Of a stretch of DNA of 64,000 bases, positions 19,079-51,592 are shown piece after piece (positions within the stretch are counted from its first letter, which is position 1; each line of letters starts with the position of its first letter). The position numbers were made by a program, and so were the translations under genes. Where the stretch lies: the NCBI GenBank assembly GCA_964343845.1, contig CAYFKW010000016.1, forward strand, positions 19,718 to 83,717, written 5' to 3'. Origin of the DNA: an uncultured Desulfobacula sp. GTDB taxonomy: Bacteria; Desulfobacterota; Desulfobacteria; Desulfobacterales; Desulfobacteraceae. Below the pieces are notes generated by a model that saw only the letters and a program-made list of their open reading frames with translations, was not told where the DNA came from and did no database searches.

Positions 19079-19462
19079 ATGGATCAAGCTGTTGTAGACC
19101 AGATATCGACCCAAGAGTATTTAGACACACTTCTGCCAGTGGAAACCAGCGATCAGTTTTTTGATGCACTATATGGAGATTCAAAAGAGGGTGCATATGA
19201 TATCAGGCTTGAATTTATATCAGCAAATGATAATCGGATTGTATTGGCATTCAACCTCATCCAGAGACCGGGCAAATGCCTGGTGTGCAATTTGACCTAT
19301 GGCCTTCCCAATGTTTTTTCCCGTCACCCATTGATAAATATCAAGGGAATGATAAAGAAAATAGAAGAAACAGGCCTGAAGGTAAAGCGTTGGAGATTGG
19401 GTGACACAGAAGAACAGAGTTCTGAGTTCCATACCATCCCATTTTTTCTGGATTTAGAATAA
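19079..19462 (+). CDS. Conserved hypothetical protein with CxxC
   Basis: AAGGAAAA upstream; FFDALYGD, GAYDIRLEF, QRPGKCLVCNLTYGLP. No function assignable. Confidence 0.8.
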   Translation: MDQAVVDQISTQEYLDTLLPVETSDQFFDALYGDSKEGAYDIRLEFISANDNRIVLAFNLIQRPGKCLVCNLTYGLPNVFSRHPLINIKGMIKKIEETGLKVKRWRLGDTEEQSSEFHTIPFFLDLE

Positions 19463-20418: not shown

Positions 20419-21012
20419 GTGGTGCCAAAACGCATGAACAAATGTATTCAGACCGTGACAGATGAAGATGTCTTAGAAGCAATGAAACGGATTCCAGGAT
20501 ACCTGGATATCACGCCATCTGATTTTCTGGAGGTTTATCGGGTTGCGTTTGATCATGCTTTATCCAGGATCAGAACGGCAGTACCGGCTGAGCATATTAT
20601 GACACGAAAAGTCATTTTTATCCATGAAGATACGCCATTGATTGAAGCTGTAATTAAAATGGCAGAACGTGAAATTTCCGGGCTTCCTGTCCTGAACAAC
20701 CAAAATAAGGTGGTGGGTGTAATATCTGAAAAAGATTTTCTTGTTCGAATGAATGAAAAGCATGCCCCCTCAATCATGCAGGTTCTTCTCCAATGCATGA
20801 ATACCAGCAGCTGTCTTGCCGTACCATTTAAACGGTTAAAAGCACGGGATATTATGTCATCGCCACCGGTCACTGTTAACAAAAATACACCCCTGATTGA
20901 TGTGGCAGATAAATTGGACCGTTTCAATATAAACCGGATTCCTGTGATCGATGATCACGAAAAACTGGTGGGGATCATTGCCAGATCAGACCTTCTTCAG
21001 GCTATGTGCTGA
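20419..21012 (+). CDS. CBS-domain protein
   Basis: IPGYLDITPSDF N-terminus, then two CBS motifs (ISGLPVL...VGVISEKD; INRIPVID...VGIIARSD); GTG after AAGGAG. Confidence 0.9.
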   Translation: MVPKRMNKCIQTVTDEDVLEAMKRIPGYLDITPSDFLEVYRVAFDHALSRIRTAVPAEHIMTRKVIFIHEDTPLIEAVIKMAEREISGLPVLNNQNKVVGVISEKDFLVRMNEKHAPSIMQVLLQCMNTSSCLAVPFKRLKARDIMSSPPVTVNKNTPLIDVADKLDRFNINRIPVIDDHEKLVGIIARSDLLQAMC

Positions 21013-21031
21013 TATGAAAAGGAGATTTGCA

Positions 21032-21571
21032 ATGACATCTTTACTGGAAAAAATGAGAGGTGGCGGCCAACGTCCTCCAAAAGTGGATACAGTAGAAATA
21101 TTTTGGTCATGGCTTGGTGCATTTTTAGGCATCGCACCTGTTGCCCTGATGAATTACAATTTATTATCAGGAACTGATTTCGTTTACATCATTGGCTCAT
21201 TTGGTGCTTCAGCTGTACTGATTTACGGTGCTGTCCGCAGCCCCCTGGCCCAGCCCCGGAATTTAATCGGCGGCCACATACTGTCAGCTTTTATAGGCGT
21301 ACTCGCTTTTCAACTGTTTCATCCGTTCCCCTGGTTTGCTGCTGCTTTTTCGGTTGCAACAGCCATTGCTGTTATGCACGCCACACAAACCCTTCATCCG
21401 CCAGGGGGAGCAACAGCTTTAATTGCGGTAATCGGCAGTGAAAGAATACACGGCCTGGGGTTTTGGTATCTTTTGTTTCCGGTAGGCTGCGGCGTGATGG
21501 TAATGCTGGTTGTGGCACTGGTAATCAATAATATAGCAAAAAACAGAAAATATCCTGAGTTCTGGTTTTAA
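21032..21571 (+). CDS. HPP-family membrane protein
   Basis: SFGASAVL, SPLAQPRNLIGGH, LHPPGGATAL; ATG 21032 after AAGGAG. Confidence 0.92.
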   Translation: MTSLLEKMRGGGQRPPKVDTVEIFWSWLGAFLGIAPVALMNYNLLSGTDFVYIIGSFGASAVLIYGAVRSPLAQPRNLIGGHILSAFIGVLAFQLFHPFPWFAAAFSVATAIAVMHATQTLHPPGGATALIAVIGSERIHGLGFWYLLFPVGCGVMVMLVVALVINNIAKNRKYPEFWF

Positions 21572-24057
21572 AGATCAGTTGAATCCAGGGTCTGATGAAT
21601 TTTAGCCAAAACAATGGTAATGTTGTCTTTGCCGCCTAAATCCAAAGCAGCCTGCCTTAATTCTTTTGCCTTGGACTCAATGGCGGACGCACTGTTTAAT
21701 ATTGCAAAAATTTGTTTTTGAGGGACCATTTTATGCAGCCCGTCTGTTGCCAGGATCAATAAATCATTCTTTTTGATTTTAAACGTCCCGGTCTGTGGCG
21801 CACAATCCCCATAACCAATACACTGGTCTAGAATGTCATATGAATAATGTTCTTTTGCCTTTTCTGGAGCCAGCTCTCCTTCTTCTACCAGAAATTTCGC
21901 AAGGGTTTGATCTTCACTGAGCTGGATTAATGTTTTGTCCCTTAATAGATACAAACGCGAATCTCCAACATTGATCCAGTGGAAATGGTCTTTTTTTAAT
22001 ATGGCACAAACCAGTGTTGTTGCCATTCCCTCAAGTTCACGCTGGGTCTGTGCTTTATCGCTTAAAATGGTATCAAGCTCATGAACCAGTTGTTTTAACT
22101 GAGTAATTTCATTTCCTGGATTTAACTTTTGAAGTCCCACGAGAGTTCCTTTTACGATTTCAGCAGCAAAATCACTGGAAACATCTCCTCCCAAACCGTC
22201 TGCTACAGCCAGAAGTAAAGACTTGTCCCCCATTTGACGAACCAGGTACCGATCTTCATTTGTCTTTTTTTTAAGCCCGGTATGTGTTAATCCGAAAATA
22301 TCAATATTATCAATTTTTAAATTGGTTTGACCTGATCCCTGGTTCACGTGTTTATAGAAACTGCATTCCATGCAGGAATCAATTTTTTCAGCAAATTTAC
22401 CCGAAATCGAGTTGCTGCAAAAAGTTCCTGCAACCAGCCAGCAAGCCCTGCCTGCGTTTTCACCTTCGTTGAGACCATCAAGTGAAGAGGTCTGGGTCGC
22501 AGGACATGTTTCGCATGCATCAGTGTCTGACCCATCCGGACCTCGGCCGCACTGCATAAATTCCCAACAGTTTTTTTTGCGGTCCTTTTTTATAAACAGC
22601 TCGGTTTCAGCTTTTTTTAAATCTTTGACAGCGTCTTCCATGTGTTTATATCTTTCTTCCGGGTTTATGCGGCAGGCTTTTATAATAAATCGGTTTAAAG
22701 AATCAGGAAGACCGGGTATCATATCACCAGGATCCGGGATCTGCTTTTGGCATCGCAATTTCAAGAATTTCGCAGGATCCGATTCAGGGTAGGGCCTTTT
22801 TCCTGACAGCATTTCAAAAGCTGCTGTCCCAAGGGAGTATATTTCACTTTGAATGCTGGCCGGCTCGCCGTTACAGATTTCTGGCGCAAGGTATGAAAAG
22901 GTACCGTCAAGCATATCATCTTCGTCATGGATAAAACTTGCCAGACCAAAATCCACGAGTTTCACAAGATGATTTTTTGTAACTACAAGGTTCTCAGGGT
23001 TGATATCCTTGTGCAAAACACCCATGTTATAAGCATACTGGATGGCCTTGCAGGCCTGATGCAGATAATTCAGGGCCGTTTCAGGGTCAATCTTTTTCTT
23101 CTTTTTTAACTTGGCAGCGATGGACTCGCCTTCCAGATATTCCATAATAATAAACGCAGTGCGAAATCTTTCTTTTACATCAAATACATTGATGATGTTC
23201 TCGTGGTTCAGGCTGGAAACAATTTTTGCCTCATTCCTGAATTTTTCCAGCAGATCAGAATCCGTAACCATATTGTGCCGCATCATTTTTATGGCCACTT
23301 CCCTCTCGTCCTTTGAATCCACCCCTTTGTATACGATGGAATATCCGCCCCGGCCAATAATATCCGTTGCAATATAACGCCCAATGGTCCGCTCTGAGAT
23401 AGGCCTTTTTGAATCGAATCTATCTGCTACAATTTCTGTAAGAAAATTAAACAGATCTGGATCATCCTCCGGTATTTTTTCAAACAGGTTTTTTTTCAGC
23501 ACCCAGAGCTCCATATCAGTTTCAGATTCAATATGAGAGTTTACCGGTTCTCCTGTAAACAGGGCAGACATATTTAATATATCGCCTTCACCACGGTGGT
23601 CAATTGGATGTAGAAGCCCTTTTTTTTCTACCAGAAGGAGACAGGAGCCTCTTCGGATGATATAGGCTTCAACAGGTGCCTGGCCCTGAACAATAAAACG
23701 GGTCGATTTATTAACCTTTTTCAATTCAAGGCCGTTTAAGATGGCATGTTTGGTGTGCGGTGGCAGAAAACGTAAAAATTTGGTTCTAAGGTTCAAAGTG
23801 CCTTCCTGTGCATTGACAATTTTAAAAAAATCACACTCCTGGCAGGTCGTCTGTTTATCAGCATATGACCCCTGGCTTTTCCCTTCACAGAAAGTCCCTG
23901 CCACGGCCCAGCAGAAACGGCCGGCACATATGCCAGAATTTATCCCGTCAAATGTTTTGTCCGCAGCAGCAGGGCAGACACCAAATTCTTTTGTGTTTTT
24001 CCCGCCCGGCTCACGCCCGCAATCATTGTATTCCCAGCAATTTAGCCGTTTTTGCAT
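21568..24057 (-). CDS. Multidomain signalling protein: Cys-rich (two-CW) - cNMP-like - Ser/Thr kinase - Cys-rich (two-CW) - PP2C phosphatase
   Basis: CWEYNDCGRE...GRFCWAVAGTFC...CQEC and CWEFMQCGRG...GRACWLVAGTFC...CMEC; cNMP-like segment FIVQG...YIIRRG; kinase GRGGYSIVY, VAIK, HKDINPEN, DFG, APE; PP2C NEDR, VADGLGG, NVGDSR, TDGL, GGKDNIT. Confidence 0.88.
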   Translation of the reverse strand: MQKRLNCWEYNDCGREPGGKNTKEFGVCPAAADKTFDGINSGICAGRFCWAVAGTFCEGKSQGSYADKQTTCQECDFFKIVNAQEGTLNLRTKFLRFLPPHTKHAILNGLELKKVNKSTRFIVQGQAPVEAYIIRRGSCLLLVEKKGLLHPIDHRGEGDILNMSALFTGEPVNSHIESETDMELWVLKKNLFEKIPEDDPDLFNFLTEIVADRFDSKRPISERTIGRYIATDIIGRGGYSIVYKGVDSKDEREVAIKMMRHNMVTDSDLLEKFRNEAKIVSSLNHENIINVFDVKERFRTAFIIMEYLEGESIAAKLKKKKKIDPETALNYLHQACKAIQYAYNMGVLHKDINPENLVVTKNHLVKLVDFGLASFIHDEDDMLDGTFSYLAPEICNGEPASIQSEIYSLGTAAFEMLSGKRPYPESDPAKFLKLRCQKQIPDPGDMIPGLPDSLNRFIIKACRINPEERYKHMEDAVKDLKKAETELFIKKDRKKNCWEFMQCGRGPDGSDTDACETCPATQTSSLDGLNEGENAGRACWLVAGTFCSNSISGKFAEKIDSCMECSFYKHVNQGSGQTNLKIDNIDIFGLTHTGLKKKTNEDRYLVRQMGDKSLLLAVADGLGGDVSSDFAAEIVKGTLVGLQKLNPGNEITQLKQLVHELDTILSDKAQTQRELEGMATTLVCAILKKDHFHWINVGDSRLYLLRDKTLIQLSEDQTLAKFLVEEGELAPEKAKEHYSYDILDQCIGYGDCAPQTGTFKIKKNDLLILATDGLHKMVPQKQIFAILNSASAIESKAKELRQAALDLGGKDNITIVLAKIHQTLDSTDL

Positions 24058-24083
24058 TATCAACCAACGCCTCTGCCATTTTT

Positions 24084-24647
24084 TTATTTTGTGCCTGTAT
24101 CTATTAAGGTCTGCATTTCATGGATTAATTCAAGGTTGTTTTTAATGGGGTTCTTTTTTTCTATTGTTTGTTTTTCAAGTTCAAATTGCGCCATCAGCAT
24201 TTTTTTTTCGTTATCAGACAATTCTTTTTCCACCATGGGAAAAAACAGATGGTCTTCCATAAATATGTGTCGGCATAAAACAGAAACAAACGAAGCCAGA
24301 TTTGTCAACAGGCTGGTTATGGCAATTTCATTTCCCATCTCATACCCTTTAATGGATTTTTCAATTTTTGTTAGAAATTGACGACCAATCTCATGCTGAT
24401 GGCGGAGAGACCCTATTTCAAGATCGAGAAGGCCCTTTTTTTTCGTAGCTAGGAAACCGAACATCAGAAATTCTTCTTTATAGTGATGGTAGTTATCTGC
24501 ATAATTTCTAAAAAAAGGTACTGCAGCCTGAAAAAATTCTTTTGGCGGGTGTAAATTTTTTTCAATATTGTTCCTTGCATCCTTTAAAAAATCCAACCCC
24601 TGTAGGATGAAGACATGCTCATCAATTAACGCCTGCGTGATTTTCAT
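24084..24647 (-). CDS. Hemerythrin (HHE) domain protein
   Basis: EHVFI, HHYKEEFLMF, HQHEIGR, HIFMEDHLFFP di-iron ligand pattern. Confidence 0.9.
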   Translation of the reverse strand: MKITQALIDEHVFILQGLDFLKDARNNIEKNLHPPKEFFQAAVPFFRNYADNYHHYKEEFLMFGFLATKKKGLLDLEIGSLRHQHEIGRQFLTKIEKSIKGYEMGNEIAITSLLTNLASFVSVLCRHIFMEDHLFFPMVEKELSDNEKKMLMAQFELEKQTIEKKNPIKNNLELIHEMQTLIDTGTK

Positions 24648-24790
24648 AGCGTCTTTTCCTTAAAAGATAATATTTTTGACAGGTTTCCAGCCGCATAATT
24701 ATAATTATATGTATTATACCGGTAATATGAAAGTTATTTCATTGATTCAGGTCAAGAATAAAAAAAGGAAAAAGAAGTCTGTGCTTTAAT

Positions 24791-50242: not shown

Positions 50243-51592
50243 AATGGTGCAAACCCCTTTTACAAAATAAGTATCTACAATATCACTGGATGTCACAAAT
50301 CCCATTTCCATATCTACGACCCATGCGGCCCTCCGGGAACGGGTATCACCGGTCCAGATCCATTTCTGGACAGCGGAGAACGGGGAATCAAAGCAGAAAT
50401 CTTCTCCCGGTGGAGGGGGGGTCAATACAGATAAGATTTCATTAACGGTGGGAAGCCGCCAATGGGAATACCCCCCCGGCTTCAGCATATTGAGCTGTTC
50501 GATAAATGTATGAGCATCGTTAAAATTAACCGGCAGAGAAGATCCAGACTGCTGCCATGCCAAATGAGTGGATTCATCTATGATGATTTTGCTGCTCTTT
50601 TTCTCAAACCTGTTTTCGAAGTATACACGTGGACGGTTAAATGCATCAATCTCAAAAACAGATCTGGCATGTTTTACAAGGATTCGTCCAGGTTTTGATC
50701 TCAAAATGGCAGGCGGCAGGCTTTTTTCCTTCCCATTTGTCAATAAATCCTTTTCCAAAATACGACAGTCCATTTCTTTTTTCTGCTGCGTTTTTTGATA
50801 AAGGGTTTCCAATTCATCAATCATTGATGCAGCCGTCTGAAACCGGTGTTCGGGTTTCGGGTCAATAAATTTTAAAATGCAGCTGTCCCAATTGTCGTCT
50901 AAATCAGGATTAAAATGACTTGGAAGCTGTCTTTTTTCTTGAGGCAGGACACCGGTCAGCATTCTATAAAGCATTACACCAACTGAATATAGATCAGATC
51001 GATGATCTGCTTTTTCAGGATTTTTAATTTGTTCGGGTGACGTATAAAATGGGGTTCCAATTGTAATATCCTTTGGGTGATTTGATGCTTCCCCTCTCCG
51101 TTTTGATAAACCAAAATCTGCGATTTTAATCGATCCAGTATCTGTCAGCATCATGTTAAAAGGTTTGATATCCCGATGGATAATACCTTCTTTGTGCAGC
51201 GCTGACAGTCCTTTCAACGATTCAATACAATACGCCACTGCTTTTTTAAGTGTCACTATCCTTGAAGGCCTGTCTGCCCAGTATGTTTCGCCGATTAACG
51301 TACCAAGATTGCGGCAGAAGTATTCCATTAAATAAAAGGGTGTCTGATGTTCTTTTTCAAGCGCCAGGACGGTTACAATGTTGGGATGGTGTATGTTGGC
51401 AATAATGGTTGCTTCATGAATAAATTGATCCAGAAGCCATCTGGCACCCATTTTATTGATCAGGGTTTGACTGGGCTTTAACAGCTTAAGTGCAGCTAAA
51501 GTCCCTGAATCCGGTATGATCACCTTATATACCTGGCCCATAGACCCTCTGCCGAGGATAGATCTGATTTGGTATTTCCCAATTGATTTTAT
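50240..51592 (-). CDS. Ser/Thr protein kinase with C-terminal DUF1566 (Lcl) domain; probable non-canonical ATA start
   Basis: ALK, HRDIKPFN, DFG, SPEQ, SDLYSVG, then LAWQQS...WRLPTVNE...WIWTG. The frame extends 5' of ATG 51541 as ATA-K-S-I-G-K-Y-Q-I-R-S-I-L-G-R-G-S-M, with AGGAAGGG upstream. Confidence 0.85.
   Translation of the reverse strand: MKSIGKYQIRSILGRGSMGQVYKVIIPDSGTLAALKLLKPSQTLINKMGARWLLDQFIHEATIIANIHHPNIVTVLALEKEHQTPFYLMEYFCRNLGTLIGETYWADRPSRIVTLKKAVAYCIESLKGLSALHKEGIIHRDIKPFNMMLTDTGSIKIADFGLSKRRGEASNHPKDITIGTPFYTSPEQIKNPEKADHRSDLYSVGVMLYRMLTGVLPQEKRQLPSHFNPDLDDNWDSCILKFIDPKPEHRFQTAASMIDELETLYQKTQQKKEMDCRILEKDLLTNGKEKSLPPAILRSKPGRILVKHARSVFEIDAFNRPRVYFENRFEKKSSKIIIDESTHLAWQQSGSSLPVNFNDAHTFIEQLNMLKPGGYSHWRLPTVNEILSVLTPPPPGEDFCFDSPFSAVQKWIWTGDTRSRRAAWVVDMEMGFVTSSDIVDTYFVKGVCTI

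Follow-up and report, generated by a model that had tools for sequence, protein, structure and literature searches.

In the window, a 64,000-nt stretch of contig CAYFKW010000016.1 from an uncultured Desulfobacula sp. to whose full length all positions below refer, we examined a gene that encodes a protein kinase and a protein phosphatase in one chain, together with the hemerythrin-like gene that precedes it; both genes lie on the minus strand. The TAA stop codon of the hemerythrin gene (24084-24086) is separated by 26 nt from the ATG of the kinase gene at 24057, which is the start used by the database copy and gives a protein of 829 amino acids (aa); an in-frame TTG upstream of it, at 24063, would give 831 aa. 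A first-pass annotation made from the letters alone had described a hemerythrin gene 26 nt before an open reading frame (ORF) of ~830 aa, with a Cys-rich domain, a cNMP-like domain, a Hanks-type kinase, a second Cys-rich domain and a PP2C phosphatase in this order, and the ORF coordinates and the Pfam and NCBIfam domain matches confirmed this layout (Table 1). The Cys-rich domain, which the protein carries twice, is NCBIfam family NF045718 (two_CW_domain; 191 bits, cut-off 35). The match to cNMP_binding (PF00027) scored 34.2 bits against a cut-off of 27.5, the match to PP2C_2 scored 62 bits against 24, and the hemerythrin scored 54.2 bits against 25.3 with the HHE model. Among NCBIfam models, the best similarities of the fused protein were to the Stk1 kinase (249.8 bits; equivalog cut-off 450) and the Stp1/IreP phosphatase (183.4 bits; cut-off 230).

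Table 1. Genes, domains and predicted regulatory boxes of the locus, in window coordinates.
Feature	Position	Strand	Details
Fused kinase/phosphatase gene	21568..24057	-	829 aa; two-CW, cNMP-like, Ser/Thr kinase, two-CW, PP2C
First two-CW domain	23809..24045	-	residues 7-85; NF045718
cNMP-binding-like domain, degenerate phosphate-binding cassette	23398..23790	-	Pfam cNMP_binding, residues 116-197
Hanks-type kinase domain, non-RD (HKD)	22594..23388	-	Pkinase, residues 233-474, E 2e-51
Second two-CW domain	22339..22572	-	residues about 498-575; NF045718
PP2C/PPM phosphatase domain	21598..22287	-	PP2C_2/PP2C, residues about 593-822; metal-binding Asp motifs intact
Hemerythrin-like HHE di-iron protein	24084..24647	-	187 aa; Pfam PF01814, E 2.6e-14
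FNR/HcpR-type palindrome TTGACCTGAATCAA (TTGAY-N4-RTCAA)	24742..24755	-	upstream of hemerythrin gene
CBS-pair protein	20419..21012	+	Pfam CBS, E 9.5e-35
HPP-family membrane protein	20951..21571	+	Pfam PF04982, E 9e-62; converges on kinase gene
Second FNR/HcpR-type box TTGATGTATGTCAA	20279..20292	+	~127 nt upstream of CBS-HPP operon

Many independent Desulfobacula and Desulfobacteraceae assemblies contain homologs that match the whole protein (825-838 aa, 60-77% identity), so the architecture is more than a chance observation, and two fused paralogs are present on one 5.3-Mb Desulfobacteraceae chromosome that was assembled as a single record. Eighty related loci from GTDB species genomes were annotated with hidden Markov models built for this analysis. 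The fused kinase-two-CW-PP2C chain is present in 9 of the 80, which come from independent Desulfobacula and Desulfobacteraceae assemblies and samples, and a further form of the fusion, without the second two-CW domain, is present in 11. The halves are split into a kinase gene and a two-CW-PP2C gene in 12 loci and into a kinase gene and a plain PP2C gene in 26, and in two loci (L084 and L088) hemerythrin is joined to the C-terminus of the kinase and the PP2C is separate. The second two-CW domain is missing from most relatives; in split relatives it is the N-terminus of the separate two-CW-PP2C gene, and the kinase gene stops where the window protein has a 12-residue in-frame linker. In the split loci L019 and L020, the kinase stop codon abuts the next start codon or sits 15 nt before it, and in the more distant split loci L034, L036 and L043 the kinase and PP2C genes overlap by 4 nt; over all split forms, the spacers range over 10-15 nt where there is one. 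Judged from this gene layout, close relatives carry both halves as adjacent, translationally coupled genes. In a FastTree phylogeny of the two-CW-to-kinase region, L019 and L020 (68-69% identity) nest inside the fused clade of the window, and kinase-PP2C fusions appear in at least four clades. That such close relatives keep the halves as separate genes could be taken as a sign that an assembly error or a frameshift merged two genes in the window, but we find this hardly credible: the reading frame is open across the junction through the linker, and the same fused ORF is found in at least nine loci from independent assemblies and samples, including both paralogs of the 5.3-Mb chromosome. As far as these assemblies can tell, the single-chain fusion is real, recurrent and derived, and the first-pass proposal that one chain holds two opposing activities, a kinase and a PP2C, is supported. 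A nickel superoxide dismutase gene lies directly downstream of one of the two fused paralogs of the 5.3-Mb genome (L003:7709-8155).

To assess the state of the kinase, we counted residue conservation over 78 family members, down to about 40% identity. All 78 keep the Gly and Ser of the Gly-rich loop, the VAIK Lys, the alpha-C Glu, the catalytic Asp, the Mg-binding Asn, DFG and APE. In contrast, the catalytic-loop Lys of HRDxKxxN is replaced by Asn in 73 of the 78, and the HRD Arg is kept in 55 and is Lys in the clade of the window. The two atypical motifs pointed out in the first-pass annotation, HKDINPEN and SEIYSLG, are both present in the window kinase, but HKD and SE are confined to the Desulfobacula clade (the family consensus is HRD and SD), whereas the change from Lys to Asn is family-wide. 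The suspicion of a pseudokinase that had been attached to these motifs did not hold up well. A scaffold whose dead kinase domain only docks a partner, with PP2C as the sole enzyme, would agree with a non-RD loop that has HKDINPEN in place of HRDxKPxN, and with the loss of the Lys from nearly all relatives when a canonical paralog in the same genome keeps it (HQDIKPAN). We nevertheless regard such a scaffold as improbable, since the invariance of all other catalytic motifs over this range of identity is the pattern of an ATP-using enzyme, and haspin, Bud32, Rio and APH are active kinase-fold enzymes without this Lys. Because the catalytic residues are invariant across the family, the kinase is probably an active, atypical, non-RD enzyme rather than a decayed pseudokinase.

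In the PP2C domain, the metal-binding Asp motifs (ED, DGxGG, GDSR, xDG and DN, represented by D604, D622-G623, D701, D774-G775 and D813-N814) are invariant or nearly so in the family alignment, in keeping with the intact residues reported earlier for the window. In the cNMP-fold domain, the Glu of the phosphate-binding cassette is absent from 78/78 members, and the Arg position is Val in the window and Arg in 23/78, while H156 and H177 are invariant or near-invariant. The missing Glu and Arg had been noticed in the first pass, and a paralog on contig C14 of the same genome retains both. Regulation of the window kinase by cyclic AMP (cAMP) was rejected on account of these lost cassette residues, which the C14 paralog, adjoining a GAF-cyclase, retains. 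The C14 locus encodes a 596-aa cNMP-kinase with an intact cassette and the HQDIKPAN loop (C14:83660-86200; L012:2161-4705) and a separate 238-aa PP2C (L012:4949-6235), next to a divergent GAF-adenylate cyclase and a nitroreductase, and it resembles a canonical form of the same kinase/phosphatase core under cAMP control. A third paralog, on contig C8 of the same genome (L013:3896-5647; 583 aa), has a PilZ domain before the cNMP domain and the kinase, which suggests that the same core has also been wired to cyclic di-GMP (c-di-GMP).

The first two-CW domain has two CW motifs, and its conserved Cys residues are C9, C15, C30, C51, C59, C74 and C77; the pattern of seven Cys (C-W, C, C, C-W, C, CxxC) is kept across the family. 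In an exhaustive HMMER search (E <= 0.001), we found 1,276 two-CW clusters at 50% identity, most of them stand-alone proteins of about 95-140 aa. Fifty-two longer members are joined to HisKA/HATPase_c, cNMP-binding, PAS, REC, Pkinase, PilZ, MCP, GGDEF, cyclase, STAS, rhodanese, GAF or PP2C domains. Because the domain is joined to so many kinds of output domain, at the N-terminus, or else stands alone, we read it as an input module; it is likely a widespread sensor for signalling proteins. Stand-alone two-CW proteins are found in Desulfobacterota, Nitrospirota, Deferribacteres, Omnitrophota, Sedimentisphaerales and one archaeal metagenome-assembled genome (MAG). These host groups are largely anaerobic, which fits an O2-labile cofactor, and the domain most likely binds a metal or an iron-sulfur (Fe-S) centre. 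A sequence search of the PDB with the two-CW profile gave no match at E <= 10. An AlphaFold2 (AF2) model of the domain reached a predicted local distance difference test score (pLDDT) of 80 and a predicted template modelling score (pTM) of 0.70, and a Foldseek search of this model against the PDB gave no fold match and a single chance-level one (E 6). Kinship with the eukaryotic CW-type zinc finger (PF07496) was rejected, as the Pfam scan contained no zf-CW at E <= 0.1 and the two families have "CW" in their names by coincidence. The first-pass annotation had proposed that each of the two activities is gated by its own putative metal or Fe-S sensor. The variety of output fusions supports the part about sensing; a separate sensor for each activity, however, is limited to one clade.

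The window's genome holds four copies of the two-CW domain, two of them in the fused protein. The third is a stand-alone 89-aa protein (C4:5459-5698; L008:1471-1740) encoded beside a PAS sensor histidine kinase. The fourth is shorter and divergent (52 bits) and is part of a 156-aa ORF with what appears by eye to be an XRE-like helix-turn-helix (C1:297099-297278; L011:1486-1956), which adjoins apparent serine acetyltransferase (cysE) and cysteine synthase (cysK) genes, as judged from their translations.

In about 50 of the 68 loci that have room for it, a hemerythrin gene lies directly upstream of the module on the same strand (a script count of 45, four loci missed by the gap and ORF-extension criteria of the script, and one kinase-hemerythrin fusion), and the outer flanks of these loci are otherwise unrelated. 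In Syntrophobacteraceae MAGs, the two proteins form a single 688-aa chain in the order two-CW-cNMP-kinase-hemerythrin (L084:7004-9070 and L088:489-2555), followed by a separate PP2C gene. This natural fusion is Rosetta-stone evidence that the hemerythrin and the kinase interact, and the di-iron partner that was first proposed for the window alone is linked to the kinase in other genomes as well. The putative ligands H11, H54, E58, H127 and E131 are invariant among 45 orthologs, and H85 is kept in at least 90% of them. The AF2 model of the hemerythrin is a helical bundle (pLDDT 93.6) with 3cax and 2p0n as its best PDB matches, and among solved structures it comes nearest to PF0695, NMB1532 and, by profile search, YtfE/RIC (E 0.007-0.008), all of them weak matches. 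Because the similarity to 3cax, 2p0n and YtfE is so weak, we assign the protein to no precise HHE subfamily. Membership in the YtfE/RIC family itself (TIGR03652) was rejected at 22.5 bits against a cut-off of 204.7; the match covers model positions 124-216 of 216, and the N-terminal part was not found.

To relate the operon to a regulator, we examined the palindrome upstream of the hemerythrin gene. A TATAAT at 24713-24718 predicts a start site ~42 nt downstream of the centre of TTGACCTGAATCAA, and a box near -42 relative to this predicted start is at the position of a class II activator. In the 4.76-Mb genome of the window, there are 60 perfect TTGAY-N4-RTCAA sites, only 14 of which lie outside long open frames. 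These non-coding boxes precede two hcp genes, a gene for a quinol-dependent nitric oxide (NO) reductase (qNOR), a NapH-like gene, the hemerythrin-kinase operon and the CBS-HPP operon, and one of the boxed hcp genes and a CRP/FNR-family regulator gene are transcribed divergently, in the classical hcpR-hcp layout. Among the related loci, box density upstream of the module is 1.33 per kb as compared to 0.051 per kb elsewhere (~26-fold). The published regulon analysis gives the HcpR motif of non-Desulfovibrio deltaproteobacteria as wyTTGACnnnnGTCAArw and states that predicted HcpR regulons often include hemerythrin-like genes (Rodionov et al. 2005, PMC1274295). In D. desulfuricans, the genes induced by NO include one for an HPP protein, in the hcpR1 operon, and those for a YtfE-like hemerythrin and an O-acetylhomoserine sulfhydrylase (Cadby et al. 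2017, PMC5701242). We predict that the hemerythrin-kinase/phosphatase operon is a member of the HcpR regulon for NO and nitrite stress. Non-coding boxes at C11:110173, C57:6224 and C17:62728 precede genes for a radical SAM/SPASM maturase (TIGR04311), a 152-aa cupredoxin that resembles the C-terminus of NosZ or CoxB, and a NapH-like polyferredoxin; these genes may belong to the regulon as well.

Of 72 loci, 29 have an HPP gene linked to the module and 24 have a CBS gene. The genes mostly run in the order CBS-HPP-hemerythrin-kinase(-PP2C); in the window, CBS and HPP (20419-21571, plus strand) are neighbours of the module but are transcribed towards it. In cyanobacteria and in chloroplasts, HPP proteins carry nitrite (Maeda 2014, cited in PMC7438415), and the CBS-pair protein is probably the cytoplasmic regulatory partner of HPP. 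The ends of the HPP and kinase/phosphatase genes overlap by 4 nt (21568-21571), which leaves no space for a terminator, so transcription from the two boxed promoters would collide or give antisense overlap. By de novo clustering of the flanking ORFs we found further recurrent neighbours: a qNOR of ~750 aa near the module in 10 loci (PDB 6qq5, E 1e-201), a NapH/MauN/NosR-like polyferredoxin in 17, a CCG-domain protein in 9 and an O-acetylhomoserine-sulfhydrylase-type enzyme in 10. A conserved protein of ~341 aa, with no match in Pfam or NCBIfam, recurs in 10 loci as well, usually after the NapH-like polyferredoxin (e.g. L049:10581-11606 and L004:2395-3420). A partner-switching module of the RsbU/SpoIIE type was considered and set aside, as the six largest annotated neighbour clusters contain no STAS or GHKL gene and the kinase is Hanks-type.

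Taken together, these data make it reasonably probable, in our judgement, that the module is a Ser/Thr phospho-signalling unit within the HcpR-type, nitrosative-stress regulon of Desulfobacterales. In response to NO or nitrite, a CRP/FNR-family activator would bind the box near -42 and switch on transcription of the hemerythrin-kinase/phosphatase operon; the CBS-HPP operon, hcp and qNOR would be induced by the same activator. The two-CW domains, in which seven conserved Cys each most likely hold a metal or an Fe-S centre, and the degenerate cNMP-fold domain would serve as inputs that set the balance of phosphorylation and dephosphorylation on a common target. The hemerythrin-like partner may report NO or O2 to the kinase or, like RIC, may re-metallate the sensor as a reset. 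The likeliest target would be the CBS regulatory subunit of the HPP protein, or else the enzyme itself. A bolder form of this reading, in which two-CW is a new class of NO-reactive Fe-S or metal input that reciprocally gates kinase and phosphatase and is reset by a RIC-like hemerythrin, with control of an HPP nitrite channel through the CBS subunit as the output, is speculative, and we doubt it in this full form. Several observations weigh against a nitrosative-stress role. Of 68 loci, only 24 have a perfect box, strictly defined, in the 300 nt before the gene that opens the module (some others have it ahead of a leading qNOR or NapH-like gene), and this box could belong to an O2-responsive FNR or another CRP/FNR paralog. 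HPP is linked in fewer than half of the loci, about 17 of 68 loci have no adjoining hemerythrin, and in the genome of the window qNOR and hcp do not adjoin the module. The de novo neighbour clusters contain no conserved phospho-acceptor partner (STAS or FHA) near the module. The proposed binding of a metal or an Fe-S centre by two-CW draws on Cys conservation and on occurrence in anaerobic lineages, and, with the catalytic-loop Lys absent, the activity of the kinase could be weak or redirected.

The same parts could also be assembled into a sensor of O2 or oxidative stress, in which the hemerythrin binds O2 as in DcrH, the box is a true FNR site and the kinase/phosphatase controls oxygen defence. 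Hemerythrin domains are classical O2 binders, and Fe-S and di-iron centres often react with O2 and NO alike. In addition, the box fits the FNR consensus TTGAT-N4-ATCAA, and one paralog adjoins the superoxide dismutase gene mentioned above. However, the same box in the same genome precedes the two hcp genes, the hcpR-like divergon, qNOR and the NapH-like gene, and other genomes have qNOR and HPP genes in physical linkage with the module. Among solved structures, the HHE-type partner is nearest by sequence to YtfE/RIC and not to the O2-carrier hemerythrins, and the de novo flank clusters contain no recurrent oxidase, catalase or rubrerythrin gene. We therefore think an O2 sensor unlikely. The first-pass annotation had left the signal as O2 or NO; the predicted sharing of a regulon with hcp and qNOR and the linkage to HPP narrow it towards NO and nitrite.

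It is also conceivable, though we lean against it, that the signal enters elsewhere in the module. The two-CW domains would then be structural zinc modules for dimerisation or docking, and the input would be the hemerythrin or the cNMP-fold domain, which might bind haem as DNR and HcpR do. Seven conserved Cys are equally able to form Zn sites, CRP-fold NO sensors use haem, and two His of the cNMP fold, H156 and H177, have been kept where the cNMP ligands were lost. In contrast, the placement of two-CW at the N-terminus of many types of output protein, and its existence as stand-alone proteins of ~100 aa, is typical of input domains, and the Desulfobacterota, Nitrospirota, Omnitrophota, Deferribacteres and Sedimentisphaerales MAGs that carry it belong to largely anaerobic groups.

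In comparison with known systems, the module resembles PknB-PstP, PrkC-PrpC and Stk1-Stp1, in which the genes for a Hanks-type kinase and a PP2C occur together and the two enzymes presumably have common substrates. In contrast to the PknB-PstP type, the window protein has no PASTA or transmembrane segments, is cytoplasmic and combines kinase and phosphatase in one chain; its inputs are the two-CW and degenerate cNMP-fold domains, its catalytic-loop Lys is Asn, and it has a dedicated hemerythrin and a predicted HcpR-type regulon. Hemerythrin-domain signalling proteins include the DcrH chemoreceptor of Desulfovibrio and Bhr-DGC of Vibrio cholerae. The likeness to these proteins is a di-iron helical-bundle domain tied to a signalling output, and in L084 and L088 this domain is fused to the kinase; however, the output here is Ser/Thr phosphorylation and dephosphorylation rather than chemotaxis or c-di-GMP, and the hemerythrin is usually separate and is HHE-type, closer to YtfE and PF0695 than to the O2-carrier hemerythrins. 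With YtfE/RIC it shares the HHE di-iron ligand pattern and the nitrosative-stress context. The regulon resembles the published HcpR regulon in its TTGAC-N4-GTCAA-type box before hcp, its hcpR-hcp divergon and its hemerythrin-like genes, but Ser/Thr kinase/phosphatase and CBS-HPP genes are not among the published targets in the available part of PMC1274295, and their predicted membership here comes from the motif alone. A 2025 census of bacterial PP2C proteins (PMC12088040) includes Pkinase-PP2C in one polypeptide and lists cNMP_binding as co-occurring with PP2C; it gives no function, partner, sensor domain or regulon, and the two-CW domain and the link to hemerythrin are not described there. 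The first-pass statement that no such system has been described thus holds in part: kinase-PP2C fusions (PMC12088040) and the two-CW family (NF045718) have been catalogued, but both are uncharacterised.

Our literature searches returned no paper on the two-CW domain, on an operon of hemerythrin, kinase and PP2C or on a connection of such an operon with the HcpR regulon, and no report of a Ser/Thr-phosphorylation pathway for NO or nitrite sensing in bacteria. As a lead to a nitrosative-stress signalling route that is still uncharacterised, the module is well supported. Nitrite and NO inhibit sulfate reducers, which is relevant to souring control, to sediments and to the gut. To our knowledge, the known responses of sulfate reducers to nitrite and NO are transcriptional and depend on HcpR and NsrR-like regulators. 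If the proposed role is correct, the module would add a post-translational layer of signalling to this response, and it would give a first functional context to two-CW (about 1,300 clusters at 50% identity), to bacterial kinase-PP2C fusions and to prokaryotic CBS-HPP pairs. Nature also offers ready constructs with which to probe how the opposing activities are coupled, in the variants that are split, fused or joined to hemerythrin.

Two further features of the window lie outside the module. A perfect box, TTGATAAATATCAA, is present at 19331-19344, in or beside a 127-aa ORF (19079-19462; no Pfam or NCBIfam match) and just upstream of a cyclophilin gene. Another Hanks-type kinase domain, at 50834-51592 on the minus strand, is part of an open frame of 460 aa and is 31% identical to the kinase of the fused gene.

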